IMG/VR virus record: IMGVR_UViG_3300014202_000453
Location: 1-27,742 of that record
Source of the DNA: a virus
Taxonomy: Duplodnaviria; Caudoviricetes
DNA: 27,742 bases
Reading direction: 5' to 3' (one strand)
Part shown: positions 2,829-27,309 of the stretch, one piece after another
How the letters are laid out: each line of letters begins with the position of its first letter
Numbering within the stretch: position 1 is the first letter of the stretch
Made by a program: the position numbers and the translations under genes
The notes under the pieces: model-generated
What the model saw: only the letters and a program-made list of their open reading frames with translations
The model's database searches: none
What the model was told of the DNA's origin: nothing

Positions 2829-3800
2829 TTAAAATGGAATCTCGTGGTCTGGGTCATTGTCGTATGCAAACACCCACTCATCATCCCAATCATTACCAGA
2901 ATAAATTCTCAGCTTATCGTGTGAATCGAATATCTGACTTTGTAGAAATTTTATTCCCATCTTCTTATTTCTCTTATAATGATAATCGGCAAATTCACCT
3001 TCACCCACTCCTACCATGGACTGTACCTCATCTAAAACTAACCCCCTCGATTCAAGCCAAGCCATCAATTCGTCTTTATCGGTAAAAATGATTCTGTATT
3101 TAGTTTGTGTGACCTGTGCAAATCTTCGGAATGCAGGATGGTTGATTGTTAAGATATTTTGTATAACCTCATCTTTGTTCTGCCCTGACGCTGTTAAATA
3201 ATCAACCATCTTTCTTAGTGTTGAGGCTACTGATTTCATTTCATCTAATATTCGTAATTCAGACATCCTCTGTTGTTCTTGCAAAAACCTTTGAAACAGC
3301 CCAGCCCACTGAAGTTGTAATTGATTGATAATATCTTTCGAAGTATCAAAGAATGCTATTGGATTATTGTTTGGAAGCCCGTAGATTTCCTCTATAAACT
3401 GATAAATGCGTACGTTATCAACGAATCCGTATTTTATATCTTTATTATCTTTATTAAGCTTATAAGTGTTATATTCACTGGAGACGCCCTTTTCGATAAA
3501 TATAAATACCTGTATTCCTTTTTCTATAGCTGTTCTAAGTTCTTGCTGAGAAATCGAATATGGACCTGCCTCAGAGGCTTCAGTGCCAAAACGTCCTCCA
3601 ATTATTGAAATCAAGATGTCGCACAATTCAACTTCCCGATAAGCATATTTCTCTGGCCTTTCTTCCTTCCCGTAGGGGATGTTGCCTGCCTCATGTCTAA
3701 CTGGTTCATAACCAAGCTCCCTAATAAATCGCTCCATATCTTCTCGAACCTGTTTAAGATCGTAAAAGGTTGAACTGATAAATACTCTTGGGATAGCCAT
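2829..3800 (-). CDS. DUF4062 (TIR-like) domain protein, candidate defence moron
   Basis: N-terminal RVFISSTFYDL...R, CDILISIIGGRFG and SISQQEL are DUF4062 signatures; AGGAG RBS; visibly AT-richer than the structural genes. Confidence 0.85.
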   Translation of the reverse strand: MAIPRVFISSTFYDLKQVREDMERFIRELGYEPVRHEAGNIPYGKEERPEKYAYREVELCDILISIIGGRFGTEASEAGPYSISQQELRTAIEKGIQVFIFIEKGVSSEYNTYKLNKDNKDIKYGFVDNVRIYQFIEEIYGLPNNNPIAFFDTSKDIINQLQLQWAGLFQRFLQEQQRMSELRILDEMKSVASTLRKMVDYLTASGQNKDEVIQNILTINHPAFRRFAQVTQTKYRIIFTDKDELMAWLESRGLVLDEVQSMVGVGEGEFADYHYKRNKKMGIKFLQSQIFDSHDKLRIYSGNDWDDEWVFAYDNDPDHEIPF

Positions 3801-5058: not shown

Positions 5059-5362
5059 AACAACACCTCCATGAATATAGGGTTGTCATTCTTGCCTCCA
5101 TAGATTTTGAAATGAGCGGGAAAAGCGCACCTACAGCGAGACACTAGGGAAACACCATAGTTCTGTAGGCACACTCCACCCGCCTATGCGAGTAGAGAGC
5201 GTCTATAAGGGCCTTAAATGCCCTGTCTTCCGATGATGAAGTTGTTTGTGTAATGCCCCTGGCAAATAGATTCCGCAACCGTGTACGGGGCAATTAGAGG
5301 GCTTAGGATCGAAGCGGGGTATCTGTGCAAGGATTCGTCTGAGTTTCTGGAAAGCCCGGATG

Positions 5363-5554
5363 CTACTGGGTTTTCGGGGCATTAGATGGGAACCACACGC
5401 GCAGAATAACAGTGATTAGTGATTTCGCGGTTGTGGTGTAGATTAGGTACTTAGGTGGCAATACGCCTTCTAAGACTGCTGCGACTTCAATAAGCGTGAC
5501 TAAGGTGTTGAAGACAGCGATTTTTGAATCTAACGCTGCGAGGAGCTTGTTCAT
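5363..5554 (-). CDS. Small two-TM membrane protein, holin-like
   Basis: Two hydrophobic segments separated by PPK; downstream of the endolysin; probable ATG at 5554. Confidence 0.55.
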   Translation of the reverse strand: MNKLLAALDSKIAVFNTLVTLIEVAAVLEGVLPPKYLIYTTTAKSLITVILRVWFPSNAPKTQ

Positions 5555-5705
5555 ATTGTTGATCGGGCTACCCAAACGTAGAAGGAGAATAAGTATTGTC
5601 GCCGGTCGAGCCTAGCGGTTTTCGTCCTTATTCCTTTACTGAGTAAGTAGCCTTAATTAAATAATGATATTTTGTTGAATAATTGCAAGCGTAGCTGTTG
5701 ATAAC

Positions 5706-6467
5706 TTACAGGCTGAAAGTGATTCCGGCTTTGGCTTGCCCGATTTTATTTGCGTCTACCTCTGCCCTTGAAACGACTGGCAATACTTTTCCTTCAAGCC
5801 CGAATATCTTTGCGACGGTTGGGTAAAGTTCTGGTGAGGTTGCGAGTTCAAAATACTGACCGTTATCGTTTTTGCCGACGATTGTTTGTTCCCCTCCGAC
5901 TTGGAAAAATTCCATATAGCTTTCCTTGATGAACTGCCACGGGTCAATTCTTCCGCCGTGACCGTTGTTAATGTCTTGTTTAATTCCGTTCTTATATCTG
6001 AACATATCCCAATGAGTGTGCGGCCCCGTCGAGAATCCGGTATTCCCTGATTTCGCTATTACCTGTCCTCTCTTCATTGGATACTTCTTGAGGCCGAATT
6101 CCCAAGTTATGTTGTCGTATAGGGAGTCTGAGAGGTGGCCGAATGTGTGTACATAGGTCTCTGTAGAATCGAGCATTGAAATTCGGTATCCGTAGTTTGC
6201 GCTCTTCTCGTATGACTCGATGATCCAGCCATCGCACGGGGCAAGAATTTCTGTGCCGATGGGACAGACAATATCTATGCCGCTATGTGATACCCAGCCA
6301 TATAAGGATAGGTACACATTTTGTCCTTTACGTAACTGGACTCCGTTTACCACCATATCCCGGTCAGCGATCCAGACCGTATTAAACCCTTGTGATATAT
6401 ATTTTTCTCCTCCTACTGGTGCGATGGGTCTTGTTTGAATGCCCTCAATTGGTTTTATGAGTCTCAT
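5706..6467 (-). CDS. M23 family peptidase, endolysin
   Basis: HSGID (HxxxD), FGHL and SGNTGFSTGPHTH (HxH) motifs; follows a holin-like gene. Confidence 0.9.
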   Translation of the reverse strand: MRLIKPIEGIQTRPIAPVGGEKYISQGFNTVWIADRDMVVNGVQLRKGQNVYLSLYGWVSHSGIDIVCPIGTEILAPCDGWIIESYEKSANYGYRISMLDSTETYVHTFGHLSDSLYDNITWEFGLKKYPMKRGQVIAKSGNTGFSTGPHTHWDMFRYKNGIKQDINNGHGGRIDPWQFIKESYMEFFQVGGEQTIVGKNDNGQYFELATSPELYPTVAKIFGLEGKVLPVVSRAEVDANKIGQAKAGITFSL

Positions 6468-7015: not shown

Positions 7016-7090
7016 ATGATATTCTTGGTTATACTTATCGTAATTTGCGCCATCGCATATAAGGTTGGTAGCTATATTGACTCCCGCTAG
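7016..7090 (+). CDS. 24-aa single-TM peptide (MIFLVILIVICAIAYKVGSYIDSR), candidate superinfection exclusion factor
   Basis: Hydrophobic N-terminal helix and polar tail; opposite strand, with its stop overlapping that of the 671-aa ejection gene. Confidence 0.55.
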   Translation: MIFLVILIVICAIAYKVGSYIDSR

Positions 7091-9102
7091 TCTTTATTCT
7101 TCGCTATCGCTAATCCGACTGCTGCGGTGCCTGCGGCCTTGACTGTGTACTTTAATCCCTGCCTCTGAAGCCACGCCGTCCAGTCCTTCGCATCGTCCAT
7201 TGACAGGTTTTTCAAGACCTGTGTTTTTCCGTTTTGATCTTTGTACGTGACGGTGCGCTTACGTGCCTTGGTTGATAAGCCGGGAGTTGATTCGTTGAGA
7301 GCGTCCAAAGCTCGCCCTGCTGCTTTCCGCACTTTTGGCAGGAATGTTGTTCCGAGCGGGCTTCTGAACTCCTTAACTTGATCCGTGATGGGTTTATCTT
7401 CCTTCCCGGAACTCAGGAAAGTGCGCTTGAATTTACCGGTGCCGACATCTCTGCCAGTAGACTTGTCAGCCGATAATATTTTCATCGGTTTTTCTTCAAT
7501 CGTCCTCGCCCCTGCTGGAATGAAGGATGGTTTCGGTAGCGCTGGCTGCTTTACGAAGTCGCCAACATTGTTCTTGATAAGCGTTTGGAGGGCTTGTTGT
7601 GCCTGAGCGTATGCTGGGCTTTCTTTCGGAATACGGGCTAGAATCAGTTTCTTTACCGGATTCGCAATGTAATTGGCCTGCATTATGTTTGAAACGGCGT
7701 CTCCCGTAACCGCACCTACAATGCTTCCTAACGGGCCTGCCTTTGCTCCCGCCACTGCCCCAATTGTCCTCGCAAAATATCCGCCGAGTCTGCCGCCTTT
7801 CACCGCGTTGCCGTCAATCCTGCGCAGGCTGTCGAGCGCATCATAGTGATCGCCCAAAATTGAATTGAACATTCGTATGTCCGCTTCAGGGATATTGTCT
7901 TCAATGAGGTCTTTAGCGACTCTGCCGAAGTTGTAATTTATGTCGCTGGAAAACGCGGGCCTCGTTGCATCAAAAACCTTGCTCTGCTTCCACTGGCCGC
8001 GCTTAATAAGGTTCGACTGGCTCAAGGTTATCTGATCGCCAAATTGCTGTTTGAATTCATTGATCAGCCGGTCAACCTCTTTATTCATGTTGCTCATCTC
8101 GCCGCTTGCTTTGTTGGATGAAGATGCAAGCCGTGATTTTACCCGTGCGCCAAGCTGGTTAAGCGGGATGTACTGATCTGCCCTTAAATAACGGTCTTTT
8201 TCTTGCAAAATTCCATCAAACACTTCTTCAAGCGTATCGGCGTCCTGACTGACCTTTTGCATTACCGGCTGTGAATTTATCTTCCCGTTTTCAATATCAA
8301 TAATATCGCCGCGCTCAGCTAAGAAGCGAGATGGGTTCTTACCGGCCCGCTCACTCTTCACGAATCCCTTTTTAGCGGCTTTCGTGCTGGTAAACACCTC
8401 GTCGTATTTTTGAGCAAGTTTTTCCACTTCCTTTTTGACGAGCGATTGTGTGACGTTTGACTTAATAGAGGGAGCCGCGCCTTTGAGCCCTTTAACCACG
8501 TCTATTGCTCCTCCGATGGCAGGAATCCCGGCTCCAATGGCCGTACCGAGTCCAGGTTTGAGAATATCCGTACCCGACTTTCCCTGATTGAGATTGGATG
8601 CAACGTCTGAGGCATACCCTGATGCTGCCCCTGCCGCGATTTTTGCGCCTCGTGTCGCTACCTTTGCGGCTGTTGAGGCCAGAGGACCGGCTTTCGGGAT
8701 TGTGGGCGCCGCAAGATATGTAGCGCTGCTGAGCGCATCTGCTGCCACCTGCTTTGCTCCTTCCACGCCTGACTTTTGGGCGGGAATGTTGAAATCGCCT
8801 AGCACCGGAATGTTGATGTTGTAGTCCTTCTCCGCGAATTGTTTGCCTTTCTCGCCGCCAAATAAAGCAATGCCGGCCTGGGCTGCGCGAACGCCCGGTT
8901 TAACGATCAACGTCTTTACCGGGTCTTTCACGAGGGACTTTAGGAAACCATCGCCTTTGGGTTGTTCGGCGGTGGGTTGAGTCTGCGGCGGTGGGGCTGC
9001 TGACTTCTGTCGGACAAACTCAACATAGGCATCCTCTTTGGCCTTGTCGTAGCCTCTTGCCCGTGCCTGCATGCGTAATTGTTGTTCTTGCTGTGGGTTC
9101 AT
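7087..9102 (-). CDS. Putative DNA ejection / internal virion protein
   Basis: 671 aa, Ala/Gly/Lys-rich with glycine-zipper-like segments (GTAIGAGIPAIGG, GAVAGAKAGPLGSIVGAVTG); last gene of the tail module. Confidence 0.65.
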   Translation of the reverse strand: MNPQQEQQLRMQARARGYDKAKEDAYVEFVRQKSAAPPPQTQPTAEQPKGDGFLKSLVKDPVKTLIVKPGVRAAQAGIALFGGEKGKQFAEKDYNINIPVLGDFNIPAQKSGVEGAKQVAADALSSATYLAAPTIPKAGPLASTAAKVATRGAKIAAGAASGYASDVASNLNQGKSGTDILKPGLGTAIGAGIPAIGGAIDVVKGLKGAAPSIKSNVTQSLVKKEVEKLAQKYDEVFTSTKAAKKGFVKSERAGKNPSRFLAERGDIIDIENGKINSQPVMQKVSQDADTLEEVFDGILQEKDRYLRADQYIPLNQLGARVKSRLASSSNKASGEMSNMNKEVDRLINEFKQQFGDQITLSQSNLIKRGQWKQSKVFDATRPAFSSDINYNFGRVAKDLIEDNIPEADIRMFNSILGDHYDALDSLRRIDGNAVKGGRLGGYFARTIGAVAGAKAGPLGSIVGAVTGDAVSNIMQANYIANPVKKLILARIPKESPAYAQAQQALQTLIKNNVGDFVKQPALPKPSFIPAGARTIEEKPMKILSADKSTGRDVGTGKFKRTFLSSGKEDKPITDQVKEFRSPLGTTFLPKVRKAAGRALDALNESTPGLSTKARKRTVTYKDQNGKTQVLKNLSMDDAKDWTAWLQRQGLKYTVKAAGTAAVGLAIAKNKD

Positions 9103-9104
9103 AA

Positions 9105-9725
9105 TTATGCGTAGTTTTTAAGCATTGCCAAGGCGGTGTTCATCTCTCCCTTCGGCCCGAAGAAGCGATTCTTGACGGCGCTTTGAACCTGCTTCGTGGA
9201 ACTGGCAAACCGTTTTCCACCGCTCCATCGTTCATCATAGATCGCTCGGATAAGCTGTTCTTCGTTGGCGTTCTTACCGATTTTAGCGAGCGCCTTGGTA
9301 ATCACGTCGGTATTTGGCCCGTGCTGGACTGCGGTGCTGAAGATCACTTCATTCAAGACTGGGCTGTACTTGGTTAGATCATATCCGGCTTTACCTATTT
9401 TAGTGATCTGGGGACTGAGGTGGGTTTGCTTGATGTATTGATCCTGCGCAGCTTCAAATCCCTTGGGGTCCTTCTTGGCAATTTCTTTCCACTTATTCCT
9501 GAACTGGTCGGAATTAAACGCGATTCCCTGGAATTCGCCAGCGTAAGGCGATTGCTTGATGAACCTGTCGGCGTTGTTGTGGGCTAGTTGATATTTGCCG
9601 TAACTCCATCCGCCGGTTGAATCCTTGCCGATAGCGTCTATCCGTCCTCCTGACTCATATTTTGCCGAAAGAGACGGGCCGACGAAGTTTTTATCTCCGG
9701 GCTTCGGCGCTGGCGCTGGCGTTAT
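9105..9725 (-). CDS. Lysozyme-like peptidoglycan hydrolase domain (VgrG3 C-terminal type), probably made as a -1 frameshift extension of the 9722..11362 gene
   Basis: Frame open for 206 codons: ITPAPAPKPG linker, then LSAKYESGG...DSTGGWSYGKYQL...F...W...DPKGFEAAQDQYI...EVIFSTAVQHG...LIRAIYDER. No ATG/GTG/TTG before 9356, which is past the putative catalytic motifs. Confidence 0.8.
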   Translation of the reverse strand: MTPAPAPKPGDKNFVGPSLSAKYESGGRIDAIGKDSTGGWSYGKYQLAHNNADRFIKQSPYAGEFQGIAFNSDQFRNKWKEIAKKDPKGFEAAQDQYIKQTHLSPQITKIGKAGYDLTKYSPVLNEVIFSTAVQHGPNTDVITKALAKIGKNANEEQLIRAIYDERWSGGKRFASSTKQVQSAVKNRFFGPKGEMNTALAMLKNYA

Positions 9726-11362
9726 TTTGGGTTTGCGCCTTCGCTGCCTCCGTATTGGGTTTCAAACTCCTGCATTGTGGACTGGTTCCCAACGTTAATA
9801 ATGTTCTGAAACTTGGTCTGTTTATCACTTAACTCCATAGCCAGGTTGTCGAGTTCGCTTAGAAGCTTATTCTTATCGCCATCTCGCCTGAGAGCCGTAG
9901 CGGAATTGGCAAGCAACTGTTGCTCGGCGTCAGAGATTGCACCTGTTCCTTTCAGCTTTGAAATACTGTCGAGGCTCAAGAGGGCTTTTAATTGATCGAA
10001 TTTGGCCACAAAGTCCCGTGAATTGCCAAATATATTGATCCGAGAACCGATTACCCCTGTAGCGCCGTCTAATCCTTTGTGGGTCTTGAGTTCATTGATC
10101 AGCGAGAGGGCTTTTTGCATTGTTGTTAATCCAGACTCTGCTTGTGCAATCTTTTCCTGTGAGCCTGGAATTACCCCAGCCGCTCCGGCTTTGGTGGTTC
10201 CATATGGAACACCGAGCTTATTGGCTTCTTCAACGCTCAACATGCCGTCTCCATCGCCTTGGGCAATATCACTTAAAAGCTTTTGTATCTGCGCTTCCTT
10301 ATAGGCTTGTTCGTACGGGTCGGCGAATTCTCCCTTACCACTCATCACACGAGCCTCGCCGGTGTTCTTGTCATACCCAATGACTGTGCCATCCGGCGCG
10401 ATCTGCATATTCCAGTCCGGGGGCAGATCAACCTTTATGTTTTTAGTGATAAGCTCTCCGGTGGTTGGATCAATGCCGTAAAACAAGCCCTGCCCGTCTG
10501 CCAATTTTTCAAATTTGTAATCAATCTGCTGGGCCTTCGGCTTCATCGCGTTATAGACGAGTTCGCCAAAGGCTTCATCGTCATATCCGGCTTGACTAAG
10601 CAGGGCGGACTTTTGCTGCGGATTAAGGGATTCAAGTGGAACACCGCTTTTGGCCAACATCTGAAGATCTCCCCGCGCCTTTTCCTGTTCCGCCTGATAG
10701 TCCTCCATCTCCCGGTTGTACTGGCCTAGTGACTCCTCTTTCTTTCGGGCGATTTCGGCACCTGCGCGATCTTCAATGTTCTGCAAAATGGCTTGCACCT
10801 GGGCATTCTTCTGCGCTTCTATGGCTTGCACCTGGCTGGTATTAAACTGTCGTGTTTTCTCGGTCGTGGCCGCGCCGAAATCACTTCCCATAAGTCCTGA
10901 CCGGGCATTTACGGCGCGTGTCTGCCCCATCCGGTCGTCACCGGCCACATTCTCCTGGGAGATCATCGAGGCAAATGAGGCATTGATTGCGTCCACCTGG
11001 GTCTGCATTCGCTTTCGCGTCTCTTCTCGGATTGCGTTCTCGTCTACGGCTTGCAGAACTGGTTTGGTGGATGCCGGGGCTGTCACTGTCGCTGGGGGAG
11101 TGACAGAAGGCGGCAGGGCGGAAGGTGCGGGAATGCTTGTAGGTGTTGGTACTGGTTGGGAAGCAGGCGGAGCGGTTGGGGGGGCTCCTGCGGCGATCTG
11201 TGTCGCTTCATTATTAAGCCCGGTTTGTCCTTTTCCTGCGCCGACGTACCGATAGACTGAACCATCATCAAAACCGTACTGCTGGTCTTGGTTGACGGGT
11301 TTTGTTCCAACGGCTGGACCTCGCGGCATAATGGGGACTGTCGGTTGTACGTATGTTGCCAT
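9722..11362 (-). CDS. Putative DNA ejection / internal virion protein
   Basis: 546 aa; Pro-rich N-terminus, Gln/Ala-rich coiled coils, ARSGLMGS and LKGTGAISDAE segments; lies directly after the tail fibre. Confidence 0.65.
   Translation of the reverse strand: MATYVQPTVPIMPRGPAVGTKPVNQDQQYGFDDGSVYRYVGAGKGQTGLNNEATQIAAGAPPTAPPASQPVPTPTSIPAPSALPPSVTPPATVTAPASTKPVLQAVDENAIREETRKRMQTQVDAINASFASMISQENVAGDDRMGQTRAVNARSGLMGSDFGAATTEKTRQFNTSQVQAIEAQKNAQVQAILQNIEDRAGAEIARKKEESLGQYNREMEDYQAEQEKARGDLQMLAKSGVPLESLNPQQKSALLSQAGYDDEAFGELVYNAMKPKAQQIDYKFEKLADGQGLFYGIDPTTGELITKNIKVDLPPDWNMQIAPDGTVIGYDKNTGEARVMSGKGEFADPYEQAYKEAQIQKLLSDIAQGDGDGMLSVEEANKLGVPYGTTKAGAAGVIPGSQEKIAQAESGLTTMQKALSLINELKTHKGLDGATGVIGSRINIFGNSRDFVAKFDQLKALLSLDSISKLKGTGAISDAEQQLLANSATALRRDGDKNKLLSELDNLAMELSDKQTKFQNIINVGNQSTMQEFETQYGGSEGANPK
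9725..9731 (-). other. -1 ribosomal frameshift slippery heptamer C CCA AAA
   Basis: Reads AAC CCA AAA TAA in the zero frame; X XXY YYZ pattern correctly phased immediately before the stop. Confidence 0.7.
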
Positions 11363-26691: not shown

Positions 26692-27309
26692 ATGCAAACA
26701 CTCTGGAAATCCTACAAGCAAGGATTAAAAAACGAACACGGTAAAGTTAAATGGGAGATCGGCAAGTGGCAACAGCAAACAGGTACTATACAAACCTGTA
26801 AAAACGGCTTTCACGCTTCAAGCCGGGCAATAGATGCAATGCGCTATGTCAATTGCGAAGTTCTCGCCATCGTGGAAGTTAAAGGTAAGAAAGATGAAGA
26901 GAAGGACAAGTCGGCTCACGAATATATGCGGATAAAGAAAGCATATATCTGGAAAAAAGGAGACTCTATAGCCCTAGCTATCTACGCCGCTGAACTTGTT
27001 ATAGGTGTTTACGAGAAGAAATTTCCAAATGATGACAGGCCTAGAAAAGCTATTGAAGCCGCAAAAGCGTACCTAGAGAATCCCACAGGCGCAGCAGACG
27101 CAGCAGCATACGCAGCAGCATACGCAGCATACGCAGCAGCAGACGCAGCAGCATACGCAGCAGCAGACGCAGCAGACGCAGCAGCATACGCAGCATACGC
27201 AGCAGCATACGCAGCAGCAGACGCAGCGGCAGACGCAGGTAAAATACTAGACCAATGCGAAGCGTTCATCCAGAAAAGAATTAAGACCTTAGAGGAGATA
27301 AAACAATGA
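26692..27309 (+). CDS. Phage protein with N-terminal C..GFHA domain and Imm5-like helical domain with Ala repeats
   Basis: WEIGKW...CKNGFHAS; LAIYAAELVIGVYEKKFPNDDRPRKAIEAAKAYL; poly(AAD/AAY). Confidence 0.75.
   Translation: MQTLWKSYKQGLKNEHGKVKWEIGKWQQQTGTIQTCKNGFHASSRAIDAMRYVNCEVLAIVEVKGKKDEEKDKSAHEYMRIKKAYIWKKGDSIALAIYAAELVIGVYEKKFPNDDRPRKAIEAAKAYLENPTGAADAAAYAAAYAAYAAADAAAYAAADAADAAAYAAYAAAYAAADAAADAGKILDQCEAFIQKRIKTLEEIKQ
27091..27237 (+). repeat. Coding tandem repeat (GCA)1-3 plus GAC or TAC
   Basis: About 147 nt built almost entirely from GCA, GAC and TAC codons. Confidence 0.9.

Follow-up and report, generated by a model that had tools for sequence, protein, structure and literature searches.

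A predicted -1 ribosomal frameshift joins a likely phage DNA-ejection protein to a hidden VgrG3-like hydrolase domain, with relatives of mostly opposite polarity

Main finding

The window, by which we mean the whole stretch of 27,742 nucleotides of virus DNA analyzed here, contains a gene for a 546-aa protein that ends on a slippery heptamer placed directly against its stop codon, and a -1 frame that continues past this stop and encodes a VgrG3-like domain. We favor, with a probability of about 0.78, the explanation that a family-wide -1 frameshift yields short and long forms of an ejection protein, and that the window represents the reversed polarity of this system. Ribosomes on CCA-AAA that face the TAA would re-pair at CCC-AAA and go on with ATA, and the slip would append a 206-residue VgrG3-like domain, giving a protein of 752 aa beside that of 546 aa. 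The stop codon that comes next would aid slippage, and an upstream GGAGG might also contribute. In the relatives, the same -1 shift would end the protein and produce the short form, and unshifted reading would give the in-frame hydrolase, which may be of the CHAP, M23, glucosaminidase-like, VgrG3-like or another type. Both forms would presumably be packaged, with the wall-cutting domain on part of the ejected subunits.

A first-pass annotation of this DNA had proposed the frameshift. Frameshifting is still the best explanation, and the protein products remain predicted; what that annotation missed was the wider family system and the minority, reversed polarity of the window. As an isolated case, the window is of less interest to us than as the probable reversed form of a switch shared by the whole family.

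Results

The junction of the 546-aa gene

The features of the junction region are as follows, all on the minus strand.

9722–11362, minus strand: 546-aa ORF, the zero-frame short product, likely a DNA-ejection (injected virion) protein, from the ORF and a phrog_2534 match
9725–9751, minus strand: junction motif coding for GGSEGANPK, conserved at the nucleotide level in divergent relatives
9762–9764, minus strand: closing TGA of the -1 frame, located 10 codons upstream of the heptamer
9747–9751, minus strand: Shine-Dalgarno-like GGAGG, a possible stimulator located 15 nt upstream of the heptamer
9725–9731, minus strand: slippery heptamer C_CCA_AAA, in phase, in the last two codons of the 546-aa ORF
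9722–9724, minus strand: zero-frame stop TAA, overlapping the first -1 codon, ATA
9675–9725, minus strand: Pro-rich linker, residues 1–17 of the -1 frame
9105–9674, minus strand: -1-frame domain predicted, from PF21277 and a fold match, to be a VgrG3-like peptidoglycan hydrolase (lysozyme/chitosanase fold)
7087–9102, minus strand: next gene, 671 aa

The 3' end of the 546-aa ORF (11362–9722) reads GCA AAC CCA AAA TAA, so that C_CCA_AAA at 9731–9725 stands in phase against the TAA, as had been claimed from the sequence. This is the only strict heptamer in the 546 codons of the ejection-type gene, and the gene is the only one among the 24 window genes checked that terminates on such a heptamer. 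The TGA that closes the -1 frame (9764–9762) lies 10 codons upstream of the heptamer and not eight, as first counted. The remainder of the first description held on recheck: the -1 frame has 206 open codons from 9725, its stop (9107–9105) is located 2 nt before the next ATG (9102), and GGAGG is found at 9751–9747. An in-phase X_XXY_YYZ heptamer is thus present in an overlap of two frames, which is the arrangement expected for a -1 frameshift.

The start-codon scan agreed with the claim that the -1 frame has no ATG, GTG or TTG until 9356, which corresponds to residue 124. Near-cognate codons occur early in the frame (ATA at 9755, ATA at 9725, ACG at 9722, ATA at 9641 and ATC at 9632). Among the 24 genes checked (window 2829–26179, minus strand), 22 start with ATG and only three have a Shine-Dalgarno-like motif before the start, the upstream regions being A-rich.

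An indel at the junction, a concern raised by the first-pass annotation, is unlikely because a 151-nt contig of run X3 crosses the junction (9637–9785) with no differences and no gaps, a result at the contig level (contig depth 2) and not from raw reads. No contig across the junction was obtained from runs X1, X2, X4, X5, X6 and X7, and X5 covers only the two flanks. The protein record P0003 has the same C-terminus as the 546-aa protein and is found on five JGI contigs, although these are possibly not independent of it.

The hidden frame encodes a VgrG3-like domain

The hidden frame is genuine protein-coding sequence. It follows the codon bias of the genome, also 5' of the TTG, with a score of 0.168 (remaining two frames, -0.30 and -0.48). 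Strain variants were identified at 17 sites, of which 16 are synonymous and 12 lie upstream of the TTG, in contigs from three runs, none of which reaches across the junction.

The translated frame matched PF21277 with an E-value of 4e-45 and 154 bits (cut-off 27) over residues 18–188, and a further VgrG3 sequence comparison gave an E-value of 4e-35. The AlphaFold model of the product (9725–9105) has an overall pLDDT of 87, falling below 50 for residues 1–15. A fold search with this model retrieved the VgrG3 structures 4noo and 4nso (TM 0.77, 28–29% identity), followed by GH46 chitosanases, in agreement with the lysozyme/chitosanase type of fold. Glu24 and Asp35 are invariant in 17 aligned sequences; Glu24 aligns with the Glu of the KYES motif, and Asp35 is one column off the VgrG3 Asp. 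We take this acidic pair to be the putative catalytic residues of the VgrG3-like domain. The Pro-rich linker at the start of the frame, which had been noted on first inspection, resembles the in-frame linkers of the fused proteins P0019, P0024 and P0127. Thus, the profile match and the modeled fold confirm the first assignment of the domain as a VgrG3-like C-terminal hydrolase (PF21277), a predicted enzyme.

The 546-aa protein and its genome context

The 546-aa protein is likely a DNA-ejection protein, which we conclude because of one PHROG match and synteny. The match is to phrog_2534, described as 'released from the phage upon host infection' (E-value 5.5e-14, residues 402–526), which was also matched by 23 of the 61 aligned family members. 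PF16928 was the Atlas lead for this protein at 0.85, which is below the acceptance bar, and a search for solved structures gave no match to the protein. In the window, a virus record with a completeness of 73%, terminase, SU10-type portal and capsid genes are located upstream of the ejection-type gene, and no tape-measure-sized gene was found at this completeness. A position after the head and tail genes, without a tape measure, is the synteny expected for podovirus ejection proteins, a class for which we assume the label P22 gp20-like.

The relatives are located in Acidobacteriota bins and in small bins of Patescibacteria size. In most of them, the stop of the ejection gene lies within a few bases of the start of the next gene, as compared to a gap of 619 nt in the window, which identifies the gap as the place of the hydrolase. 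Elsewhere in the window, we observed a separate M23 peptidase, likely an endolysin (5706–6467, minus strand), a DUF4062 protein (2829–3800, minus strand) and a DUF7666/Imm5-like protein (26692–27309, plus strand).

In-frame hydrolase fusions in the relatives

A Pfam hydrolase is present in frame in 36 of 78 homologues (24 CHAP, 11 M23 and 1 SLT), the window's own record being left out of this set, and a lysozyme-like tail motif was identified in 14 more. Among the 40 closest homologues, 38 have a hydrolase or lysozyme-like tail in frame, and the two exceptions are on contigs of about 2 kb. The first-pass annotation had named in-frame fusion in all homologues as an observation that would speak against a frameshift. 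This is nearly what was found, but it does not refute the frameshift because the slippery site and the -1 stop are retained at the same junction; an in-frame homologue is insufficient to exclude frameshifting.

In 114 of the 120 best long matches, the VgrG3-like domain occupies the C-terminus, and 26 of these 120 also match the ejection-family profile. No second split locus was found at the DNA level: every intact, close C-terminal hydrolase locus that was fetched is in frame, and the six intact new loci with ORFs read are all long single ORFs. The records P0047 and P0005 look like truncations at contig ends. A scan of IMG/VR with the 546-aa protein directly gave no confirmed loci, and a scan with the hydrolase alone gave 41 distant loci (31–37% identity) and one linker-only match. 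In GenBank phages, 81 records were matched, with at most 41% identity among the 25 matches listed. In genome samples, the hydrolase profile was found in 0 of 401 and the ejection profile in 2 of 401 and 6 of 401.

Several loci differed from the common arrangement. In L232, P0167 and P0255, the VgrG3-like domain is near the N-terminus or ends a different long virion-type protein, with no evident slip motif. The homologous frames of L311 (around 3001), L050 and L051 are broken by TGA codons, which suggests phages that read TGA as a residue. In L079 (2816–3700), L095 (3887–4771) and L323 (1495–2379), which may be one source, the ejection gene ends at 294 aa with a common, unrelated-looking tail, possibly an insertion. 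L045 contains a 156-aa ORF (5257–5727, minus strand) between two ejection-type genes, which by eye we take to be HNH endonuclease-like.

Slip signals at the junctions of the relatives

Of 15 fusions, 11 have a strict heptamer within the 45 codons that precede the hydrolase; the comparison values are 22 of 183 windows taken from other parts of these genes and 39 of 357 windows from 33 genes that lack a fusion. The 15 fusions were picked by protein homology, and eight of them had already been seen when the criteria were set. When T_TTT is allowed as well as a heptamer, and a -1 stop is required within three codons, 12 of the 15 fusions qualify, as do 25 of 183 windows. L081 fails the slip-site rule in this set, and L076 and L077 fail the three-codon stop rule. 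Among the later loci, all 15 C-terminal fusions have a slip site with a -1 stop within three codons (39 of 191 comparison windows), or 15 of 18 loci when three non-terminal M23 genes are counted; these 18 were fetched after the idea of a frameshift had been noted, seven are common to the earlier 15, and the L318 junction had previously been seen. No slip site was found before the internal M23 domain of the long genes L315, L316 and L317. The significance of the junction enrichment is overstated since the loci are related.

Not included in the counts were duplicates or near-duplicates (L231, L233, L306, L310, L312, L319 and L321), loci with a non-terminal domain or unclear tail (L047, L056, L232, L307 and L320), loci with TGA-interrupted or short frames (L050, L051, L092 and L311) and loci below 46% identity; five motif-selected loci are displayed but uncounted.

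At least six heptamers are in use (C_CCA_AAA, G_GGA_AAA, C_CCT_TTA, A_AAT_TTT, G_GGT_TTT and A_AAA_AAA), and this diversity points to selection acting on slipperiness at the junctions. The motif F[NKS] is the trace that TTT and an ensuing -1 stop leave in the protein. Within the linker of 30 residues, it was present in 68 of 87 VgrG3-like fusions after dereplication, as compared to 279 of 1,708 windows. All six family-like matches of the degenerate F-N pattern use T-TTT. Thus, the conserved site that the first-pass annotation suggested looking for is found in the homologues, as a slip site with a -1 stop before hydrolases of varied families, but the split polarity is absent in the fetched DNA.

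Elements downstream and upstream of the slip site

In the register of the slip site, the relatives have a 6-nt spacer followed by a small H-type pseudoknot-like element (2–3 bp plus 4–6 bp) at 19 of 31 junctions, as counted by a rule fitted on the same sequences, and such a fit occurs at 0.6% of background positions. Covariation in 12 junctions aligned in one register showed 97.6% of the cells paired and five of seven pairs changed on both sides, with a score that was reached by none of 500 shuffles. From this comparison, the predicted helix of 4–5 bp is well supported and the first helix weakly so. The junctions of L077, L093 and L322 have plain hairpins. A search of four loci against Rfam, with E-values up to 1, gave one weak, chance-level match only. 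A terminator was considered for the element of the relatives and rejected, the T run being 5' of the structure and the spacer 6 nt long.

No 3' structure was found in the window (z -0.57; no pseudoknot fit), including at 5–9 nt downstream, and the frameshift efficiency may therefore be low. The class V_VV.A_AA.R, which covers C_CCA_AAA, is described as one of the most efficient classes in E. coli (PMC4066793). Shine-Dalgarno-like stimulators of -1 frameshifting are given a range of 9–14 nt upstream (PMC5009743). The GGAGG of the window, at 15 nt, is just beyond this range; GGRGG is in the same place in L043, L076 and L305, and a role as stimulator is possible.

Discussion

The junction class of the window and alternative explanations

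At the nucleotide level, the window shares the pattern GGRGG-n-AGC-nnn-GGC-RCA-AAC-CCA-AAA with L043, L076 and L305, and L077 keeps the heptamer. In 22 of 23 protein records, the residue after the junction motif is Ala or Val, whereas P0059 (46% identical) ends exactly at NPK, like the window; the pattern matches in P0090 and P0192 are not junctions and are outside the 23. P0143 and P0209 have a junction motif of the window type joined in frame to a VgrG3-like domain. A slip signal of the same polarity as in the window is seen only in the protein record P0059, and the DNA of the relatives has the opposite polarity. In the hydrolase records P0203, P0204, P0210 and P0211, the initial Met corresponds to that of the LSM..G motif found in the linkers of in-frame fusions. 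These four and P0059, known as protein records alone, may be further split loci.

The records with an initial Met would also suit the initiation of a separate hydrolase protein at the ATA (9725–9723) that overlaps the TAA in an ATGA-like manner. The same geometry occurs in the ATGA overlaps of the window and its relatives, and weak AUA initiation behind a Shine-Dalgarno motif is described in E. coli constructs (PMC4066793). We nevertheless consider such a start improbable: the genes checked in the window use ATG with two exceptions, the Met of the four records falls within the linker motif, the first residues of the hidden frame correspond to an interdomain linker in the fused relatives, and the conserved heptamer would be left unexplained.

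Just as improbable is a recent mutation or module swap that put the hydrolase out of frame, with little or none of it made in this lineage. In-frame fusion is the family norm, the two states differ by one base in an A run, and the synonymous variants are on contigs that are unlinked to the junction, all of which would suit a recent break. However, the same junction is present in another run and all 206 codons of the frame are intact. The in-frame relatives have Ala or Val after NPK or DPK, never the Ile implied by a simple loss of one base, P0059 terminates at the same place, and the break would have to coincide exactly with a site that is slippery throughout the family.

Slippage of RNA polymerase, which would add a base at the junction, is expected to give the same two products and has a precedent in Thermus dnaX (PMC5009743). 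It is very improbable here, given a run of only four As and relatives in which codon-phased heptamers of varied bases are followed by a structure 6 nt 3', which is a ribosomal pattern. An artefact of sequencing or assembly at the A run, which would make the gene a single ORF of 752 codons, is hardly credible in view of the gap-free X3 contig and the five contigs of P0003, even though the junction contains a short homopolymer and is known from an assembly.

Beyond the -1 frameshift itself, we lean slightly towards the broader reading that the slippery site, the 6-nt spacer and the mini-pseudoknot form a portable cassette at the joint between the ejection protein and an interchangeable hydrolase in a large, uncultured, podovirus-like family. 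The cassette would set the number of armed channel subunits, and lineages like that of the window would have flipped its polarity and inverted the ratio of the products.

If the family-wide frameshift is real, hundreds of ejection genes annotated as plain fusions yield two proteins, and the split members carry an unannotated enzyme. It would also add a new class of genes to phage recoding and provide a naturally occurring -1 stimulator of very small size, with numerous variants for testing. Moreover, it would offer an explanation, open to testing, of the way in which structural subunits and a restricted number of wall-cutting domains are combined in an ejected channel.

Comparison with known systems

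General background is available in PMC5221750, PMC10885494 and PMC9927483. The first-pass annotation knew of no described case of frameshifting in an ejection gene, and our search of titles and abstract openings, mainly of openly accessible papers, likewise found none.

A close analogy is dnaX of E. coli, a single gene from which a -1 shift yields both a long and a short product (tau/gamma), with a Shine-Dalgarno-like 5' element and a 3' structure (PMC5009743). Both polarities have been described for dnaX: in the usual form the shift leads into a near stop, and in the rarer form, proposed for Chlorobium and others, the stop directly follows the site and the shift leads into an extension (PMC5009743). 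Unlike dnaX, the gene studied here is a phage virion gene, with several heptamers instead of A_AAA_AAG, with interchangeable enzyme domains, and with a pseudoknot-like element that is predicted in the relatives and absent from the window.

The slippery site of Lactobacillus phage A2 is CCCAAAA. Gene 10 of T3 and T7 and the genes of Lactobacillus phage A2 and Listeria phages A118 and A500 are similar to the present case in that some copies of a virion protein receive a C-terminal domain through a -1 shift at the end of the gene (PMC5009743). These capsid and tail extensions are mostly Ig-like domains on the outer surface, whereas here the extension would be enzymatic and the protein that carries it is likely ejected; the relatives mostly have the opposite polarity.

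T7 gp16 and the phiKMV-like Ar-KM gp42 are likewise ejection proteins with a fused wall hydrolase, the position of which varies (bioRxiv 10.64898/2026.05.18.726046). These are plain in-frame fusions, unlike the junction of the window, and the word 'frameshift' does not occur in the available text of that paper (bioRxiv 10.64898/2026.05.18.726046). Finally, the C-terminal effector of V. cholerae VgrG3 (PF21277; PDB 4noo and 4nso) resembles the predicted domain in both sequence and fold. The VgrG spike and the T6SS are absent here, and in phages the domain often forms the C-terminus of long proteins.
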